NCBI GenBank assembly: GCA_001822675.1
Contig: MHRY01000013.1
Span: forward strand, 2,024 to 40,692
Reading direction: 5' to 3'
Source: Candidatus Taylorbacteria bacterium RIFCSPLOWO2_01_FULL_45_34b
Lineage (GTDB): Bacteria > Patescibacteriota > Minisyncoccia > Phycocordibacterales > DSPV01
Length of the DNA: 38,669 nt
Made by a program: the position numbers and the translations under genes. Each line of letters opens with the position of its first letter. Position 1 is the stretch's first letter. Shown piece by piece: positions 1,872-8,864 of the stretch. The notes below the pieces were generated by a model. The model ran no database searches. It was not told the DNA's origin and saw nothing but the letters and a program-made list of their open reading frames with translations.

Positions 1872-4800
1872 CTATTTTTTAATATCAAGGATAAAAGACA
1901 TGTCATCAATCTCGACTGTCTCACCGAACGTCTCCGCAAAACGCACACCCTTAAGAAGAGTGTTTTTGATGATTTCGGATTTGTTTTTTTCAAGAAAATC
2001 CCTGCCTGCCGGAGATGTTTGGATCGTGAGCGTGGCAAAATCCGAAATGGTAAGACCACTATTTTTACGAAGTTCTTGAACACCGCGAATAAATTCTCTG
2101 ACTTTCCCCTCTTCTTTTAATTCCGCTGTCAACTCGAAATCGAGCTCTACCTCTTCTTCTTGATCTTCAGCAAAAATAACCTCTTTAACATTGATCTCAT
2201 CGGCAATCAAATCCAAAATCTGCTTGTCTGAAACTTTTAACTTTTTACTTTTCACTTTCAACTTCTTAAGAGGTTGCCTCACTTTAATTCCCGCTTTGGC
2301 TCGAAGTTCCAAAGCAATGGAAACAATCCTTCGCACTTCGGCCATGTTCTCGATGATTCCTGAATCCTGATTCCTGATTCTTGATTCTACTTTTGGCCAC
2401 GACTCAAGATGGACGCTCTCGGGGTCGGAGCCTCCGCGAAGTTTCTGATACATTTCTTCGGCAAAAAACGGAGTGAGCGGCGCCATAATTTTGGAAAGTT
2501 CGAGAAGCACAAAGTGGAGCGTTTGGAGCGCCTGCTCCCTATCCCCAGTTTTTTCTCCATTCTTGAATCCTGCCCGCCCGAACGACTGATATTGTTCAGT
2601 CGGGCGGGAATCCAAATTCCTGAATCCACCCTTAAATCTCTCTCTTGAACGGCGAAGATACCACGTCGAAAGGTCATCAATAAAATCGGCAACCGGTCTT
2701 GCGGCTCGATCAAGTTCGTAAGCTTCCAGATTAACTGTCACCTCTCTACCAAGTTGAGAGAGCCGCGCCAAGATCCAGCGATCTAAAACATTCGCATTTG
2801 GTGATTGTTTATTGGTATTTGATGATTGCTTTTTTTCTGCATAAAGCAGAAAAAAGGCTAAAACATTATCAAGTCGCTGAATAACTTTTTTCAGAATCTC
2901 GCCAACCTCTTTCTCACTAAAACAAAAATCTTGAGCGCGTGAAGCGGGTGATGCCAAAAGATAATAACGCATAGCGTCAGCACCGTATCGTTCTACCACC
3001 TCCATCGGGTCAGGGTAATTTTTAAGATGTTTTGACATCTTCTGGCCATCCTCGGCAAGCACCGTACCATTCACCACCACATGCTCATACGCGGCTCTAT
3101 CGAAAAGTCCGACAGAAAGAACGAGCGTGGAATAAAACCAGCCGCGCGTTTGGTCTAATCCTTCCGCGATAAAATCCGCCGGATAACCTTTTGGTTTTTT
3201 GAAAAATCCGCCTCTCGGATCAAACGTATCCTTATTTTCGAACGGGTAATGAACTCCCGCGTACGGCATCGATCCGGATTCAAACCAGCAATCAAACACC
3301 TCGGGAACCCGCCGCATAATACCGCCACAAGAACAAACAAAAACCACACTATCAATGTACGGACGGTGGAGGTCGAGCGCGTAATGTTCGTTATGGGGAA
3401 GCGGCACAAACGGTATTTCTTTGACTTCAGCGTTTTTGATAAAGAAGTCAGTTGTTCCTCGGGCTGTAACCGCACGGTCGAGATCGTGTCCCCCCGCGAC
3501 AGACTCAAGAAGCCACGCCGGAGAATCATGTGTTACCATTAAAATGTTTTTTCCTTCGTATCGCTTGTCGATATTATATATAAACTCACCGACTCTCTTT
3601 GCGATATCAACATAATGCTCGCCGCCCGGGCACGTTCGCTTGAATTGCTCCTCACCGCTCCGGCAATTCAAATGGTATTCGCCGATGGGGCGACCATTAA
3701 AGAGATCGGCCTTAATTTCTCTAAGACGTTCGTCGTATATAATTTTCTCTTTTGGAAACCCGATATGATCCGCGACAATTTCCGCTGTTTCTTTAGTCCG
3801 AAGAAAAGGCGAAGAAATAATAAGGTCAATCTTTTTCCCGAGAAGCGTCTTCACAGCCGCTTTAACCTGCTCTTTGCCTTTTTCCGTCAAATGATGGGGG
3901 TTGTTGGGGTAAGAACTGACCACGCCGAGCACATTGTTCTCCGCCTCGCCGTGACGCATCAGAAGATAATTGTTTCGAGGCTTCGCACTGTCTTTCAGAT
4001 CTTCAATTGAACCGACAAACTTCATCTTTTCACACTGCTCGCATTTCCAAACCGGAATAGGCGCGCCGAAGTACCGTGAGCGTGAAATCGCCCAATCTCG
4101 AATGCCGGAAAGCCAATCACCGAAACGATTCTCTCCCACTTCCCTCGGCACCCACCTGATTTTATTATTTTCCGCGATGAGCTTTTCTTTGAGAGCCGTT
4201 GTTTTGACAAACCACGACGACGAGGCGAAGTTGAGAAGCGGCGTTTCGCAGCGCCAGCAGTGTGGGTAGGAATGCGTGATTTTTTCCTTGGCAAAAAGCA
4301 AACCGCGATTGGCGATATTTTTGAGAATTTCAATATCCGCCCGAGAAGGATCGTCTTTCGGTTTTACGTCGATACCAGCGAAATCTTTGATCTCCGGAAC
4401 AAATTTGCCGTCAGTCGAGACATGCCGGATAAGCGGCAGACCTTCGAGCTCCGCCAAAGCAAGATCATCTTCACCGAAAGCTGGCGCGATATGAACAACA
4501 CCGGTGCCTTTTTCCAAGGTCACAAACGGCGCGACATACACCTTCCACGCTTTTTCGATGCCCTTGATGCGTGCATCTTTGTAATAATTAAAAACCGGTT
4601 TATAAGAAAGGTCAACAAGCTCGCTTCCTTTATATTCCTCGACAATCGTGTACTCCTCTTTTATAAGAGAAAGTTTTTCCTTGGCCAAAATATAGCGACT
4701 CTGCCCCACTGCCACTTTGACGTAGACAATGTCGGGGTGGACCGCGAGCGCCACGTTCCCCGGCAGCGTCCACGGCGTCGTCGTCCAAACCAAAAAACAA

Positions 4801-5459
4801 GTGCCCGGCTCACGGGTCAGTTCAAATTTCACATACACCGAAATGTCGGTAACGTCTTTGTAACCCTGACTGACTTCAAAATTAGAAAGGGTGGTGCCGC
4901 ATCGAGGACAGAGATGCATTGATTTGAATCCTTCGTAAATCAGACCTTTTTTATGGAGTTCTTTGAAAGCAAACCAGACGCTCTCGGTGTATCTCGCGTC
5001 CATGGTCTTGTAGTCATCATCCATATCAACCCATCGTCCGGTACGCGGAATAATTTCTCTCCACTCTTCGGCGTAGCGAAGCACTGCCTCTCTGGCCACA
5101 CGGTTGAATTTTTCAATACCGAGCGTTTCGATATCGCGCTTGGTTTTAAGCCCCAGTTCTTTTTCAACGAGATTTTCAACTGGCAATCCGTGACAATCCC
5201 AACCCCATCGTCGACGAACATGATACCCTTGCATGGTTTTGAACCGCGGGATGACATCTTTAATCGTGCCTGCCAAAATGTGCCCATAGTGAGGCAGGCC
5301 AGTCGCAAACGGCGGGCCATCATAAAAGACAAACTCGCCTTTTGGCGCTGGCTTTTCAAGCGACTTCTCAAAAATCTGTTTGCGTTTCCAAAAAGCGAGA
5401 ACAGCCTCCTCTCGTTCGGCAACCTTTAACTTTTGTGGGTTTTGTTCCTGCTCTGGCAT
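1872..5459 (-). CDS. ileS: Isoleucyl-tRNA synthetase (type 2, HYGH) with inserted histidine-phosphatase domain
   Basis: DGPPFATGLPHYGH, GWDCHGLPVE, WTTTPWTLP, DWAISRSRYFG, FIAEGLDQTRGWF, KMSKH; extra domain with LMRHGE...SSPFLRTKETA...LRE...VTH. Confidence 0.97.
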   Translation of the reverse strand: MPEQEQNPQKLKVAEREEAVLAFWKRKQIFEKSLEKPAPKGEFVFYDGPPFATGLPHYGHILAGTIKDVIPRFKTMQGYHVRRRWGWDCHGLPVENLVEKELGLKTKRDIETLGIEKFNRVAREAVLRYAEEWREIIPRTGRWVDMDDDYKTMDARYTESVWFAFKELHKKGLIYEGFKSMHLCPRCGTTLSNFEVSQGYKDVTDISVYVKFELTREPGTCFLVWTTTPWTLPGNVALAVHPDIVYVKVAVGQSRYILAKEKLSLIKEEYTIVEEYKGSELVDLSYKPVFNYYKDARIKGIEKAWKVYVAPFVTLEKGTGVVHIAPAFGEDDLALAELEGLPLIRHVSTDGKFVPEIKDFAGIDVKPKDDPSRADIEILKNIANRGLLFAKEKITHSYPHCWRCETPLLNFASSSWFVKTTALKEKLIAENNKIRWVPREVGENRFGDWLSGIRDWAISRSRYFGAPIPVWKCEQCEKMKFVGSIEDLKDSAKPRNNYLLMRHGEAENNVLGVVSSYPNNPHHLTEKGKEQVKAAVKTLLGKKIDLIISSPFLRTKETAEIVADHIGFPKEKIIYDERLREIKADLFNGRPIGEYHLNCRSGEEQFKRTCPGGEHYVDIAKRVGEFIYNIDKRYEGKNILMVTHDSPAWLLESVAGGHDLDRAVTARGTTDFFIKNAEVKEIPFVPLPHNEHYALDLHRPYIDSVVFVCSCGGIMRRVPEVFDCWFESGSMPYAGVHYPFENKDTFDPRGGFFKKPKGYPADFIAEGLDQTRGWFYSTLVLSVGLFDRAAYEHVVVNGTVLAEDGQKMSKHLKNYPDPMEVVERYGADAMRYYLLASPASRAQDFCFSEKEVGEILKKVIQRLDNVLAFFLLYAEKKQSSNTNKQSPNANVLDRWILARLSQLGREVTVNLEAYELDRAARPVADFIDDLSTWYLRRSRERFKGGFRNLDSRPTEQYQSFGRAGFKNGEKTGDREQALQTLHFVLLELSKIMAPLTPFFAEEMYQKLRGGSDPESVHLESWPKVESRIRNQDSGIIENMAEVRRIVSIALELRAKAGIKVRQPLKKLKVKSKKLKVSDKQILDLIADEINVKEVIFAEDQEEEVELDFELTAELKEEGKVREFIRGVQELRKNSGLTISDFATLTIQTSPAGRDFLEKNKSEIIKNTLLKGVRFAETFGETVEIDDMSFILDIKK
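2573..2608. repeat. 36-bp palindromic REP-like repeat inserted in frame in ileS
   Basis: CCCGCCCGAACGACTGATATTGTTCAGTCGGGCGGG; its reverse complement matches 19254-19289 at 35/36 positions. Confidence 0.9.
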
Positions 5460-5460
5460 A

Positions 5461-5757
5461 TACCCGATAAACTTTTTAGCTATTAAAAAAGTTGCATAAT
5501 ACTTTCTTTATATAATTTCGACCCCATTGCGTTTTTAAATACTTTTCGCGTTGAAACGCGTCTTTTTGATTTAAAAATGCTTCGTAATAAATCAACCGTA
5601 AAGGCACTCTTCTAGCGGTGGAAGCAACTTTTTTTGCATTATGCAGTTGCAATCTTTTCCGCAAATCGCTCGTACAACCGGTATATAAGTTATGATCAGC
5701 CCTGCTCTGTAAAACATACACATACTGCATAATGGTAGCTAAAAAGTTTCGCGGGTA
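5461..5757. mobile_element. Putative GIY-YIG mini-element bounded by 22-bp inverted repeats
   Basis: 5461-5482 TACCCGATAAACTTTTTAGCTA and 5736-5757 TAGCTAAAAAGTTTCGCGGGTA are 20/22 complementary and enclose only the GIY-YIG ORF. Confidence 0.6.
5476..5730 (-). CDS. Stand-alone GIY-YIG nuclease family protein
   Basis: YVYVLQS...LYTGCTSDLRKRLQLHN...LIYYEAF...A..REKYLK. Confidence 0.92.
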   Translation of the reverse strand: MQYVYVLQSRADHNLYTGCTSDLRKRLQLHNAKKVASTARRVPLRLIYYEAFLNQKDAFQREKYLKTQWGRNYIKKVLCNFFNS

Positions 5758-5789
5758 AAAAAGCGCTAGAATATGATGATTCTAGCACT
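5756..5789. repeat. Left copy of 34-bp direct repeat bounding the DGR cassette
   Basis: TAAAAAAGCGCTAGAATATGATGATTCTAGCACT, identical to 8419-8452; internal inverted repeat GCTAGAAT/ATTCTAGC; overlaps the RT stop codon. Confidence 0.95.
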
Positions 5790-6774
5790 ATTTCAGGAAT
5801 TTTGAAATTTTATTTTGCAAACCATATGCATTACCATGCTTCAATAATCCAATATATGAAATGATACTTTGAGGTGTTGGATTCTCGTTAATTCGCTTTA
5901 TCATTCTTCTTTTTGTACTTGTCCTCAAAACTCGATGTTTTGGAAAATTCACCCAGCCTAAAAAATCAACTCCAGAAGCAACTGTTTGTATGAAAACTTT
6001 GTCAGGGTGTAATTCTAGTTTTAACTTCTCATGTAGATATCTTACGATATATCGTAAGACAACTTTCAACTCTTTTTTATCTCCAGATAAAATCACAAAA
6101 TCATCAGCATACCGAATGTAGTATTTAATTTTTAAATTATGTTTAACATATTGATCAAATTCGTTCATGTAAATATTGACTAAAAGCTGGGAGGTCAGGT
6201 TACCGAGTGGTAATCCTATTCCCTTATTTGTGGAGCAAAAACTTTCTACTATATTCTGGATAAGCCACAAAATATCTTTGTTTGGTATGTATTTGTCGAG
6301 AATTTGATAAAGCAAAAAATGGTCAATGTTCGCAAAGAATTTTTTTATATCACACTTAAGCACCCACACTGTTTTTGTATTATTTTTACTAACACGAAAA
6401 AAATATCTTCTGAATGTTTCCACTGCTTTATGTGTGCCCTTCTGAAGTCGGCACGAGTACGAATCAGTCGCAAATACTCTGTCAAAAAACGGGTACAACT
6501 TTCTATACAAGGCACGATGAAGCAGTCTGTCCCTCACACTTGCCTTGTGAATATCACGGGGTTTCGGGTCAGAAATTTTGAAATGCTTATACGGTTCATG
6601 CTGATATGTCTTATCTTTAAGCTCTTGATGCAAAGAGAAAATATTGTCCATAAGCCGTAATTGAAATTCCTGTACATCCTTTTTTTTCCGCTTCCCTTTT
6701 ATAAACTCTTGCCATGCACCAAGTAAATTCTCGATAGAAATGATATCGTTATATGTATGAGCGAATTGAATCAT
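5788..6774 (-). CDS. DGR reverse transcriptase
   Basis: 328 aa RT with GLPLGNLTSQ and YIRYADDF motifs, KCDIKKFF, DFLGW; no endonuclease domain; adjacent to the TR. Confidence 0.95.
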   Translation of the reverse strand: MIQFAHTYNDIISIENLLGAWQEFIKGKRKKKDVQEFQLRLMDNIFSLHQELKDKTYQHEPYKHFKISDPKPRDIHKASVRDRLLHRALYRKLYPFFDRVFATDSYSCRLQKGTHKAVETFRRYFFRVSKNNTKTVWVLKCDIKKFFANIDHFLLYQILDKYIPNKDILWLIQNIVESFCSTNKGIGLPLGNLTSQLLVNIYMNEFDQYVKHNLKIKYYIRYADDFVILSGDKKELKVVLRYIVRYLHEKLKLELHPDKVFIQTVASGVDFLGWVNFPKHRVLRTSTKRRMIKRINENPTPQSIISYIGLLKHGNAYGLQNKISKFLK

Positions 6775-6856
6775 TCTCCTAACGATACCCCCCCCCCGAG
6801 CACTTTTTCAACAGAAACTCGTTCCCGTTATTCTTAAACTTAAAGACGCCTATGGT

Positions 6857-7189
6857 TTGTGGCAAAAGTATCTGGCACATTTTCCCAAAGCTAATCGTTT
6901 TACTCTTGGATCAAAAATAGACGAGGTATTTCTTGCGACCATTGAATATTGCTTCCTTGCAAGTTACGCAAACGTACAGGAAAAAATGCCCCTGCTTAAT
7001 CGTTGTATTTCAAGAGTTGACCTTCTTAAGTTATTGCTTCTCCTTGCATGGGAAATCAAAGCGCTTGATACAAAAAAATATATTCATCTCTCCGAACACA
7101 TGGTAGAAGTAGGTAGAATGCTTGGAGGCTGGAGACGTCAACTCGTAAACAAAACTCCCCTACCTAAAAAGGAAGGGGAGAAATCGTGA
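6857..7189 (+). CDS. avd: Avd-like (bAvd four-helix-bundle) DGR accessory protein; the true start is probably ATG 6757, out of frame at a C10 tract (6788-6797)
   Basis: FPKANRFTLGSKIDE...VDLLKLLLLLAWE...MVEVGRMLGGW is Avd-like. The frame stays open upstream (VPVILKLKDAYGLW) with no ATG/GTG/TTG before 6857. Confidence 0.82.
   Translation: MWQKYLAHFPKANRFTLGSKIDEVFLATIEYCFLASYANVQEKMPLLNRCISRVDLLKLLLLLAWEIKALDTKKYIHLSEHMVEVGRMLGGWRRQLVNKTPLPKKEGEKS
7155..7180 (-). other. Hairpin just 3' of TR (TR-RNA spacer region, inside the avd 3' end)
   Basis: CTCCCCTACCT-AAAA-AGGAAGGGGAG, 10 pairs with one mismatch. Confidence 0.5.
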
Positions 7190-7194
7190 TAGTG

Positions 7195-7320
7195 GCGCAC
7201 CGCGAGGAACCGGTAGTTGCCATTCCAGTCATTGTCAAACCAATTGAGGTTGAGCTTGCGCTTCGAGTCATACTTGTCGAGGTAGAGGACGTTGCGATTA
7301 CCGTTGACCTTCGCGACGGA
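7195..7320 (-). repeat. DGR template repeat (TR)
   Basis: 126 bp aligns ungapped with 7654-7779. Conceptual translation SVAKVNGNRNVLYLDKYDSKRKLNLNWFDNDWNGNYRFLAVR, rich in AAY codons. Confidence 0.96.
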
Positions 7321-7563
7321 GCTTTGTATAAAATACCTTCCAAACCACTGCCTGTCGAAAACTCCGCAGTAGTCTCAAGGCTGTATCGTATTCGTGATGT
7401 ATAGTATCACCTAGTATTTCACACCAACTGTCTCTGATTTTTTACGGAAACCAAGTGGCACTCTTCGGGAAGCCATAACCGCCCGAACTCTCACCTCTTG
7501 GGTTGCGGACAAATTACCCAAAGCCGTAACCTTGGATTTTTCATTTGTCACTTTTATTTTAGC

Positions 7564-7607
7564 AAAAAAAATGACCCTCCAAAACTTTTTCAAGTTTCAA
7601 AGGGTCA
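7564..7607 (-). terminator. GAAA-tetraloop hairpin plus U8 downstream of VR (terminator and/or DGR target-recognition hairpin)
   Basis: Minus strand UGACCCUUUGAAACUU-GAAA-AAGUUUUGGAGGGUCA (16 bp, 3 G-U) followed by a U tract, about 46 nt after the VR end. Confidence 0.8.
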
Positions 7608-7647
7608 AAGTGCCTAAGGGCAAAACCGAGAGACAAGGTGCAGAGAA

Positions 7648-8283
7648 CTATTTGCGCACCGCGAGGAACCGGCAGTAGCCACCCCAGCCACAGTCAAACC
7701 AATGGAGGTAGAGCCGGCGCCCCGAGCCACACTCGTCGAGGTAGAGGACGTAGCGATCACCGTGGACCCGCGCGACGGAACCAAGTTCTACAATTGGAAA
7801 CTCTCTCTGCACTTGGGGATTGTGTTCCCCGAAAGCCAGAAGTTCTTCAGTCGCCGCCGGTCGGTAGCCTTCTTTATCCATTTCTTTGATGGCGTCTTCT
7901 GACGAAATGTACCGCCCGAAATGAAACAGGGCGGATTCCACCTGACGGCTTCCTATACCTTTTATCGGAAATCGCTCTTCAGTGATCTCGGAATTCGTCC
8001 AGTCGTACTTGCCCGCCCCAATCATCTCCGGAAGAGGGCGACAATTGACAGCGAACGTGTATGGAGTGATTGTAGGTTTCAGAATGGGCGGGGTAATTAG
8101 AGGAAGACCAAGAAGTGCACGAATGCCATCGCGTTTCGTTGTATCAAGACTTCCGGCCTTGGCGGCTTCGAAAACGTCGGTGATAATGCCGGAGCAAATC
8201 GCCGTCTGCAGTTCCTTGTCCGTAAGCTCTTTTTGTTGAGCAAGCTCGAGCAATTTGCCTGCCTGTTTGAGGGTTGCGTTCAT
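7648..8283 (-). CDS. DGR target (variable) protein with C-terminal VR, probably CLec-like fold
   Basis: Ends ...LYLHWFDCGWGGYCRFLAVRK. The ORF-track start TTG 8367 lies upstream of the predicted TSS, so ATG 8283 or 8349 is more likely. Confidence 0.9.
   Translation of the reverse strand: MNATLKQAGKLLELAQQKELTDKELQTAICSGIITDVFEAAKAGSLDTTKRDGIRALLGLPLITPPILKPTITPYTFAVNCRPLPEMIGAGKYDWTNSEITEERFPIKGIGSRQVESALFHFGRYISSEDAIKEMDKEGYRPAATEELLAFGEHNPQVQREFPIVELGSVARVHGDRYVLYLDECGSGRRLYLHWFDCGWGGYCRFLAVRK
7654..7779 (-). repeat. DGR variable repeat (VR)
   Basis: 21 differences from TR, all at TR adenines (13 A>G, 4 A>T, 4 A>C); invariant GC-rich 3' end CGGTTCCTCGCGGTGCGC. Confidence 0.96.
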
Positions 8284-8368
8284 CGCAAGCCTTTCTGTGT
8301 TTTGCAGTCCGTGTTTAGCGGGTGCGTTGATTATCAAAACCAGCGTCATGCCGATTTCTACTGACAAA

Positions 8369-8398
8369 ATACTAGCATAAGTAGGCTATATTTGTCAA
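8369..8398 (-). promoter_or_regulatory. Sigma70-like promoter for the DGR target gene
   Basis: TTGACA-N18-TAGTAT with extended TG on the minus strand. Confidence 0.6.
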
Positions 8399-8418
8399 TA
8401 GCCGTTGCAGAAACGTAT

Positions 8419-8452
8419 TAAAAAAGCGCTAGAATATGATGATTCTAGCACT
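8419..8452. repeat. Right copy of 34-bp direct repeat bounding the DGR cassette
   Basis: Identical to 5756-5789. Confidence 0.95.
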
Positions 8453-8474: not shown

Positions 8475-8864
8475 CTATGCCTCCGACGACTGTTTCAAAA
8501 AAACGAGTGTCTGCACAAAACCGGAAACTTCACCTTCAAGATATGCCATAGTACTTATAGCTGTTACTGGATTAAACGGACGCCCCTCATCAATCTCCTT
8601 GACACATTCCGCAAGAATTTTGAGTCGTGCCAGCCACAACTCATAACGCAAAGTAAACGGCCGCATACCACCATCTTCACTACCAAAAAGCAGTAATGCT
8701 TCCTTGTAACATCGACTTACCCGTTTAGAAATCTGCTCTTGAAACTCGCGGACAAAATCGGCTCCCTCGGTACTCGTTACCTTGTCCGAGAAAACGTTCA
8801 CGAAGGTAATGGCGCTAAGAGCAGTTGACTCCGGTGTGTCCAGTGGACTCCGTTCGTATTGCAT
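8475..8864 (-). CDS. Hypothetical helical protein
   Basis: 129-aa ATG ORF with upstream GAAAGG; no recognisable motif. Confidence 0.6.
   Translation of the reverse strand: MQYERSPLDTPESTALSAITFVNVFSDKVTSTEGADFVREFQEQISKRVSRCYKEALLLFGSEDGGMRPFTLRYELWLARLKILAECVKEIDEGRPFNPVTAISTMAYLEGEVSGFVQTLVFLKQSSEA

Follow-up and report, generated by a model that had tools for sequence, protein, structure and literature searches.

The 38,669-nucleotide stretch of the Candidatus Taylorbacteria bacterium RIFCSPLOWO2_01_FULL_45_34b genome that we analyzed (hereafter, the window) contains a diversity-generating retroelement (DGR) enclosed by two identical 34-bp direct repeats (34-mers). We propose that this DGR probably inserted at the terminator and −10 unit behind a host gene, open reading frame (ORF) 129, and that the 34-bp host unit was duplicated, leaving one copy at each end of the cassette. 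The window is part of contig C13 in our own numbering of this genome (label G000; 777,556 bases in 50 contigs, 91% complete). The flanking genes are coded on the minus strand, as are all genes around the cassette except avd, and their order on that strand is argS (11042-9327), ORF89, ORF129, the right 34-mer, the cassette, the left 34-mer, a GIY-YIG gene and ileS.

A perfect 34-bp repeat marks both ends of the DGR

The 34-mer (TAAAAAAGCGCTAGAATATGATGATTCTAGCACT) is present twice without a mismatch, the two copies being offset by 2663 bp, and their identity breaks off sharply at both borders. They enclose a cassette of 2,629 bp (5790-8418) that consists exactly of the reverse transcriptase gene (RT), avd, the template repeat (TR), a hairpin, the target gene with its variable repeat (VR), and the promoter of the target. 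A previous reading of this DNA from its letters alone (the sequence-only reading) had described identical 34-mers around precisely these parts, and the coordinates, the offset and the uniqueness of the pair are all borne out. It had also placed the RT stop codon in the left copy, which is correct for two of the three bases: the TAG occupies 5790-5788, so that its remaining base lies in the cassette.

A search of the entire genome recovered just these two copies, at up to 3 and also at up to 4 mismatches. With up to 3 mismatches allowed, no further copy turned up in the window and no match in 100 shuffles, and the core palindrome had no additional site in the genome with fewer than 2/14 mismatches. 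As the genome holds two copies only, a dispersed repeat is ruled out for the 34-mer, and the claim of a discrete pair survives the check that could have undone it.

The enclosed element is a bona fide DGR, as every internal mismatch between TR and VR (21 of 21, minus strand) falls at a TR adenine. A 141-nt excerpt of the two sequences has 30 mismatches, the other 9 of which lie in its first 10 and last 5 columns, outside the repeat. RT is 60-68% identical to the RTs of 80 Patescibacteria loci, and the divergent orientation of avd is common to 15 of 15 related loci. In agreement with the statement that neither an integrase nor a transposase lies inside, a Pfam scan of the cassette matched only RT and avd and identified no recombinase or transposase, with 8 more ORFs of at least 59 aa remaining without a match. 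A DDE transposon or insertion sequence was also rejected, since there is no transposase, the termini share only AT (by eye) without inverted repeats, and the duplications here and at two loci described below measure 34, 41 and 32 nt.

The repeated unit is an intrinsic terminator by sequence and fold

The minus-strand RNA of the 34-mer reads AGUGCUAGAAU-CAUCAU-AUUCUAGCGCU-UUUUUUA, which forms an 11-pair stem with one G·U pair, capped by a loop of 6 nt and followed by a U-tract. The sequence-only reading had noticed an 8-bp inverted repeat with a 6-bp spacer in the DNA; this is real and on the minus strand reaches the 11 pairs through the G·U pair. Folding of this strand gave a ΔG of −15.7 kcal/mol (z −4.45) for the right copy and −16.7 kcal/mol (z −5.37) for the left, while the plus strand contains a C·A mismatch and is unremarkable (z −1.4). 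Our motif scan for promoters and terminators scored both copies as terminators, and no Rfam family matched in or near the cassette. The right copy begins 22 nt past the ORF129 stop codon and the left copy overlaps that of RT. Because stem, loop and U-tract fill the 34-mer, and because it is placed after stop codons, the repeated segment corresponds to exactly one terminator unit. By its sequence and fold, the 34-mer is a complete intrinsic terminator, at which transcription would be expected to end, and the description of the repeat as a terminator-like hairpin followed by Us is upheld by the 11-pair stem, the six Us and the folding energies.

The same unit contains a candidate promoter element. 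The motif TGCTAGAAT is an extended −10 element that lies in the rising arm of the hairpin on the minus strand. In the right copy, a −35-like hexamer is placed 17 nt upstream of TAGAAT (10/12 plus TG, where the scan scores the −35 and −10 hexamers out of 12); in the left copy the −35-like sequence is TTCAAA, 16 nt upstream (9/12). Both the TGnTAGAAT box and the TTGAAA of the right copy had been called previously, and we found them on the minus strand. The predicted −10 in the left copy is the sole promoter-like −10 ahead of GIY-YIG/ileS. The GIY-YIG start codon is only 25 nt beyond the left U-tract, a gap that leaves no room elsewhere and thereby confines the putative promoter of this unit to the hairpin. 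The proposal that the repeat overlaps the ileS promoter holds in that the repeat contains a promoter-like −10 for the GIY-YIG/ileS unit, but the next gene is the 84-aa GIY-YIG gene, with ileS following it. An RNA started in the loop would miss the rising arm and hence should not terminate there.

TGnTAnAAT is a frequent upstream motif in this genome, where we counted 146 occurrences; 40 of them are intergenic and have an ORF on the same strand no further than 150 nt downstream. In just over half of these (21 of 40), at most 11 nt separate the end of the motif from the start codon, with a pile-up about 7 nt ahead of start codons genome-wide. This distribution suggests that many mRNAs in this genome are leaderless and start from extended −10 promoters.

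The repeat is conserved behind ORF129 in genomes of another genus

We compared the locus with 60 relatives, none of the same genus, from which a family set of 15 genomes (including G000) was drawn. Homologues of ORF129 were found in only two of the 60, G009 and G011, which belong to the same family and another genus (34-40% identity). In both genomes a single hairpin of the form AA(A)CGCUAGAAU-loop-AUUC(U/C)AG(C/U)GUUUUUUUA stands right behind the stop codon of the homologue. Within the family set, the motif GCTAGAAT-N4-8-ATTCYAG has two sites in G000, one in G009, one in G011 and none elsewhere. An alignment of the four hairpins keeps pairing in 96% of stem cells and shows one compensatory A-U/G-C pair as well as two wobble changes, although the rows comprise only 3 independent sequences and the statistics are weak. 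TTCTCA-17-TAGAAT was called at the equivalent place in both G009 and G011, and the next gene begins about 16-20 nt after the U-tract.

As single homologous hairpins stand behind the ORF129 homologues of G009 and G011, the copy on the ORF129 side is identified by this comparison as the native one and the copy on the RT side as the duplicate. On the same sequence evidence, the 34-mer is host DNA and not DNA of the element. The coordinates of these features are collected in Table 1.

Table 1. Features in and around the DGR cassette (window coordinates).
Feature	Position	Strand	Remarks
ileS	1872-5459	−	essential gene, downstream
GIY-YIG gene with flanking 22-nt inverted repeats	5461-5757 (gene 5476-5730)	−	84 aa; abuts left copy, ends 1 nt before ileS ATG region
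Left 34-mer	5756-5789	−	duplicate by comparison; terminator-like 5789->5762 at RT stop; TTCAAA-16-TAGAAT with TG
DGR reverse transcriptase (RT)	5788-6774	−	RVT_1, PF00078, E 8.4e-25; frame extends to cassette end, stop completed by repeat
avd (bAvd-like)	about 6794-7189	+	bAvd E 1.7e-12, bits over cut-off; divergent from RT
Template repeat (TR)	7190-7320	−	82% identical to VR
Hairpin and T8	7572-7607	−	16 pairs, downstream of target/VR
DGR target gene	7648-8367	−	probable ATG 8349; no Pfam match, no PDB sequence match
Variable repeat (VR)	7649-7779	−	3' end of target gene
Target promoter-like site	8369-8398	−	TTGACA-18-TAGTAT with TG, within cassette
Right 34-mer	8419-8452	−	native ORF129 terminator by comparison; stem AGUGCUAGAAU/AUUCUAGCGCU, loop CAUCAU, U6; embedded extended −10 TGCTAGAAT
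−35-like TTGAAA	8465-8470	−	17 nt upstream of right-copy TAGAAT; 10/12 plus TG
ORF129	8475-8864	−	host gene, no Pfam match; homologues in G009 and G011 only (60 relatives)

Similar footprints at other DGR loci

We looked for flanking repeats in a survey set of 96 DGR loci, made up of the window, 15 loci from the relatives and 80 from a species collection. Of these, 55 (including the window) were usable: RT had to be matched over 280 aa or more, with a minimum of 3 kb of sequence on its upstream side and 80 nt on its downstream side. In each, the segment at the end of RT was aligned against the region 1.1-4 kb upstream, with 165 cross-locus comparisons serving as the null. The window scored 34, followed by L110 (29), L118 (23) and L120 (17), all above the null maximum of 15.

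At L110, a 41-nt repeat with 4 mismatches consists of the 3'-terminal part of an ABC-F gene; it has 2 copies in its genome, and the RT frame enters the second. Two relatives, L123 and L132, have the ABC-F gene directly next to the convergent downstream gene, tail to tail, with one copy of the repeat and no DGR. The L110 site is truly empty in these relatives, and the duplication of its target is found at L110 itself. Two other loci, L106 and L064, share neighbours with L110 but are rearranged, and we rejected them as empty sites. At L118, a 32-nt hairpin is repeated and again contains the RT stop, and from its sequence L118 is probably a further case of flanking duplication. The survey of other DGRs for flanking direct repeats has thus yielded one clear and one probable case, with L120 ambiguous and nothing in the large majority of loci.

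The spacing of the repeats is similar at the three loci (2663 bp in the window, 2677 bp at L110 and 2586 bp at L118), and in each the conserved part of RT ends no more than about 4 codons from the repeat, with the flank supplying or completing the stop codon. The repeats have no common core, as the three sequences are unrelated, and the termini are not inverted repeats. No conserved sequence was found past the RT stop across 16 loci. RTs that are 60-68% identical occupy different gene neighbourhoods. The presence of a discrete DGR module with defined ends, as the sequence-only reading had supposed, is supported by the host-derived duplication in the window and by L110 with its empty sites. The attL/attR-like nature that it had offered as one reading of these ends is not supported: L110, L118 and the window have no repeat core in common, and no recombinase was identified in the cassette.

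Among the 15 loci of relatives, exact repeats of at least 13 nt around RT were of chance size only, except for a tandem DGR in G006. That locus, L026 (contig C23, 6491-11815), pairs a complete DGR with a tandem copy whose RT is truncated, both lying between two genes whose counterparts in G009 overlap (ATGA). No Rfam family matched some 250 nt of structured-looking sequence at 11560-11800 of L026. The 144-nt repeat at L074 was rejected as a flank scar because it is a duplicated target promoter region. Repeats were also noted at L093, L099, L081, L060 and L070, that of L093 resembling a tRNA arm by eye.

Evidence against insertion with duplication

Several observations weigh against the insertion and duplication that we propose. 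The footprint is rare: 51 of the 54 other usable loci score 13 or less, with nothing seen. All 4 mismatches of L110 are in the last 18 of its 41 nt, beside an identical stretch of 23 nt. Besides its flanking pair, the L118 hairpin occurs a third time elsewhere, and no clean empty site for it was found among 13 relatives' loci. The palindrome of L120 is dispersed, which leaves that case ambiguous. The G006 DGR inserted, without duplication, between the genes that overlap in G009, and neither the second DGR of G000 (C42) nor its orphan target (C35) has flank repeats. The window has no excess of promoter-like matches (27, with 28.1 expected from shuffles), and we know of no described mechanism for target duplications of 32-41 bp without a recombinase.

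The empty site of the window itself is also missing from the data. The pattern of the 34-mer core had 0 matches in metagenome contigs and in genome contigs, and the ORF129 protein had 0 relatives in metagenome contigs. In G009 and G011 the hairpin is followed by an M16 peptidase gene and not by GIY-YIG/ileS, so the comparison with these genomes spans more change than one insertion. In G000, the M16 peptidase gene is on contig C25, which overlaps the start of C13; the gene lies beyond ileS and beyond a RecO-like and a GlyRS-like ORF (the latter two named by eye). The expectation of relatives with a single 34-mer joined to the GIY-YIG/ileS leader is therefore borne out in part: G009 and G011 have one homologous hairpin each, but in none is it joined to GIY-YIG/ileS.

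Sequencing reads and alternative explanations

The stretch is contained in 9 sequencing runs, 4 of which we examined as k=31 contigs. In all four, contigs break in both 34-mers (ends at 5785/5789 and 8448; starts at 5760 and 8423), and all four junction types are present in runs X1 and X6. We observed no 2663-bp skip or empty-site joint in the four runs, where a k=31 graph gives the same picture for an integrated cassette as for an empty site and a separate circle. Depth was alike in cassette and flanks (41 / 51, 42, 37, 29 / 36 in X1). The ends of the genome contigs overlap by about 80-93 nt; as such overlaps imply a final k well above 34, this suggests that the assembly resolved the 34-bp repeat. 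Contigs also break or thin in VR and the adjacent target (7606-8106) in three of the four runs (X6, X8 and X9), as would be expected of a VR diversifying in the population; the contigs give no variant frequencies.

We consider it rather unlikely that the 34-mers are recombination sites, either attL and attR for a host recombinase acting in trans or a 34-bp homology for Campbell-type integration and excision of a circle. Under both versions the cassette could leave and re-enter at this host hairpin. The repeats are direct and perfect, with an 11-6-11 palindrome resembling that of tyrosine recombinase core sites, and the genome encodes one tyrosine recombinase of the Phage_integrase family (C40) and one 515-aa large serine recombinase of the resolvase family (C30). 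Because the L110 mismatches are one-sided, as after crossover between slightly different copies, they hint at crossover rather than plain fill-in at that locus, and the abstracts of two studies of Escherichia coli describe recombinase-less islets that excise between short direct repeats (PMC5426353, PMC3191183). However, the hairpin is host DNA conserved with ORF129, the window, L110 and L118 share no core, the genome has no like site elsewhere, and an initial duplication event would be required in any case. The reads offered no skip joint and nearly equal depth, with the limit of k=31 contigs noted above. A terminus or dif site of the kind used by Xer-dependent modules (IMEX, pdif) was rejected, as GC skew is negative and monotonic across the 38.7 kb and there are no further sites.

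Insertion of the DGR at the ORF129 terminator also has to be weighed against a regulatory module placed twice, in which one terminator or promoter-operator would put the target gene and GIY-YIG/ileS under one regulator and be kept identical by selection or gene conversion, with no bearing on the arrival of the DGR. Such a module is improbable in our judgement. The palindrome overlaps the −10 as an operator would, and copies of such modules occur, both in G000 (8333-8398 recurs on C25 at 94% identity) and as the promoter-region repeat of L074. Yet the repeat is a terminator unit rather than a promoter, its −35 elements lie outside and differ, the copies stand exactly at the cassette ends where one completes the RT stop, and L110 has the same geometry with a gene 3' end that is not a regulatory site.

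There is very little to suggest that the arrangement is an assembly artefact, with a cassette from elsewhere or from an episome threaded into the chromosome through a shared 34-mer. The k=31 breaks at both copies fit an empty site plus a circle equally well, but the contig overlaps and the similar depth of cassette and flank speak against it, the 34-mer would still have to occur twice, and L110 and L118 were assembled independently with the same architecture. We give next to no credence to an LTR-like (long terminal repeat-like) origin, in which a terminally redundant transcript from the upstream −10 to the downstream terminator is reverse transcribed to rebuild both copies: the 34-mer holds an extended −10 and a terminator, a loop-started RNA would pass the first copy and an RT is on board, but the hairpin is host-derived and present without a DGR behind ORF129 homologues, which largely refutes this origin, and related cassettes lack such a repeat or, where they have one, carry host gene ends.

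A model for insertion at a host terminator

In the model that we favor, a DGR cassette without a recombinase of its own would have inserted at the terminator element of ORF129, doubling the whole 34-bp unit. The right copy would let ORF129 keep its terminator, while the left copy would provide the DGR transcription unit with a terminator right at the RT stop and would keep a −10 element ahead of GIY-YIG/ileS. The likeliest route to the duplication may be staggered breaks or template switching at both borders of the hairpin, followed by fill-in; another candidate is a circle that integrated with the hairpin already on it. The variable length of the duplications (34, 41 and 32 nt) argues against an enzyme that measures with a fixed ruler. 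Only those insertions that left ORF129 terminated and ileS transcribed would have been retained.

Two other loci in G000 show scars of this kind around other cargo. On C44, a unique pair of 32-nt terminators, spaced by 1086 bp, encloses an MntA (Polbeta nucleotidyltransferase)-HepT toxin-antitoxin pair, and a unique pair of 24-nt hairpins encloses MntA-HepT together with HicA and a small upstream ORF (a sub-threshold match to the PHD_like antitoxin). A unique 26-nt pair on C20 surrounds 1.6 kb without Pfam matches. Other local hairpin pairs (C8, C13:24204, C16, C19 and C32) were dropped as members of dispersed palindrome families. The HicA and MntA-HepT cassettes (C44:59-2171, L134) stand in a row, parted and bounded by hairpins, and resemble a small cassette array.

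As a tentative generalization, which we hold with much less assurance than the account of the window, accessory cassettes of Patescibacteria such as DGRs and toxin-antitoxin pairs might be inserted by an undescribed recombinase-free pathway at hairpins and gene ends, duplicating a unit of 30-40 bp (sometimes longer) and leaving the neighbours intact, which would make the DGR a non-autonomous mobile unit. The window, the L110 scar with its empty relatives and the toxin-antitoxin scar together form a testable pattern, in which long targets the size of a local unit are duplicated with no recombinase. Should selection merely have filtered rare illegitimate insertions, the footprint is ordinary though tidy; should the scar be the product of an enzyme or of a replication route, very small genomes would have an insertion mechanism that is new. 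The predicted promoter within the terminator's own stem is in addition an example of regulatory compaction.

Relation to known systems

Three well-known arrangements have parallels to the window. Islands at tRNA, tmRNA and other gene 3' ends are bounded by attL/attR repeats of tens of bases that restore the gene, and they rely on an integrase and a conserved att core. The direct repeats in the window would likewise keep the neighbouring function intact, and the L110 repeat is itself a gene 3' end (ABC-F), but neither an integrase nor an att core was found in the window cassette. During Cas1-Cas2 spacer integration and in casposons, staggered attack at the borders of a unit of about 28-37 bp, often palindromic, is followed by gap repair that duplicates it. 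A whole unit is similarly duplicated around the insert here, and G000 has a CRISPR array and a Cas1 gene; in contrast, the insert in the window is 2.6 kb, the lengths of 34, 41 and 32 nt fit the local unit, and the Cas1 frame of G000 has 2 stops. Xer-dependent modules (IMEX, pdif) are recombinase-less cassettes between 11-6-11 palindromic sites, which recalls the palindrome of the 34-mer and the single tyrosine recombinase of G000, whereas the site in the window is off the skew switch, has no sister sites and is in sequence a conserved host terminator.

The microcin H47 island of E. coli, as described in the abstracts of PMC3191183 and PMC5426353, is a small island without a recombinase between short direct repeats, as is the DGR in the window. 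Its excision has been demonstrated experimentally, whereas the window is known from sequence and its repeat is a whole host terminator hairpin.

With respect to other DGRs, passages of a survey of the Candidate Phyla Radiation (CPR) put the share of the B3 architecture at 90% of the CPR DGR set (Wu et al. 2018, PMC5758913), and those of a later study describe a DGR clade restricted to Patescibacteria on cellular genomes (Roux et al. 2021, PMC8144416). CPR DGRs of B3 architecture or DGR clade 2 have, like the window, an RT, a bAvd-like avd, adenine-specific TR/VR differences and a C-terminal VR in the target; the window differs in that its ends are marked by a duplicated host terminator. Its divergent-avd layout probably is the B3 architecture, which itself is left undescribed in the passages of PMC5758913. 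The relevant passages of both surveys state that DGRs are transferred horizontally and that the phage link of CPR DGRs is unknown; they make no mention of flanking repeats or defined cassette ends, and 'mobile' occurs 0 times in those of PMC5758913. A literature search, with the survey supplements and Paul et al. 2017 outside its scope, found no paper joining DGR, Candidate Phyla Radiation and target site duplication. The spread of chromosomal CPR DGRs is unexplained, and here the ends of one such cassette are defined to the base, with a repeat that is a host terminator.

Additional features of the cassette and its neighbours

The cassette looks foreign and portable from its GC content, which drops to 0.38 in 5001-7000, and from the differing neighbourhoods of related RTs. 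Upstream of the avd reading frame there is no ATG, GTG or TTG before 6857, yet the bAvd match needs about 17 further residues upstream. A tract of ten Cs (6788-6797) lies between the divergent starts of RT and avd, and a C-run is found at the same place in G006 (L026). The perfect palindrome TCTTACGATATATCGTAAGA at 6040-6059, in the RT gene, recurs at at least 11 other sites in the genome and is also present in G002 and G010; its sequence could represent a protein-binding or restriction-type site.

The segment at 8333-8398, which recurs at C25:5652-5717, comprises the target promoter, the 5' untranslated region and the first codons. The copy on C25 is downstream of a MetRS-like gene, and the frame that follows it is broken by an in-frame TAG. 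The CRISPR array of G000 (37-nt repeat) is at C21:24299-25696, beside the Cas1 frame, whose two stops are one TGA and one TAG.

The 22-nt inverted repeats around the GIY-YIG gene are 91% complementary, and the first 2 nt of the left 34-mer are also part of the upstream arm. The gene with its inverted repeats is also present in 4 other genomes of the order (L036-L039; genes 57-75% identical), each time wedged between one gene's stop codon and the ATG of the gene that follows, in neighbourhoods that differ; from these sequences the unit looks like a small mobile wedge. Downstream of it, the IleRS encoded by ileS contains a histidine-phosphatase domain (His_Phos_1, E 2.8e-29) inserted at residues 499-661.

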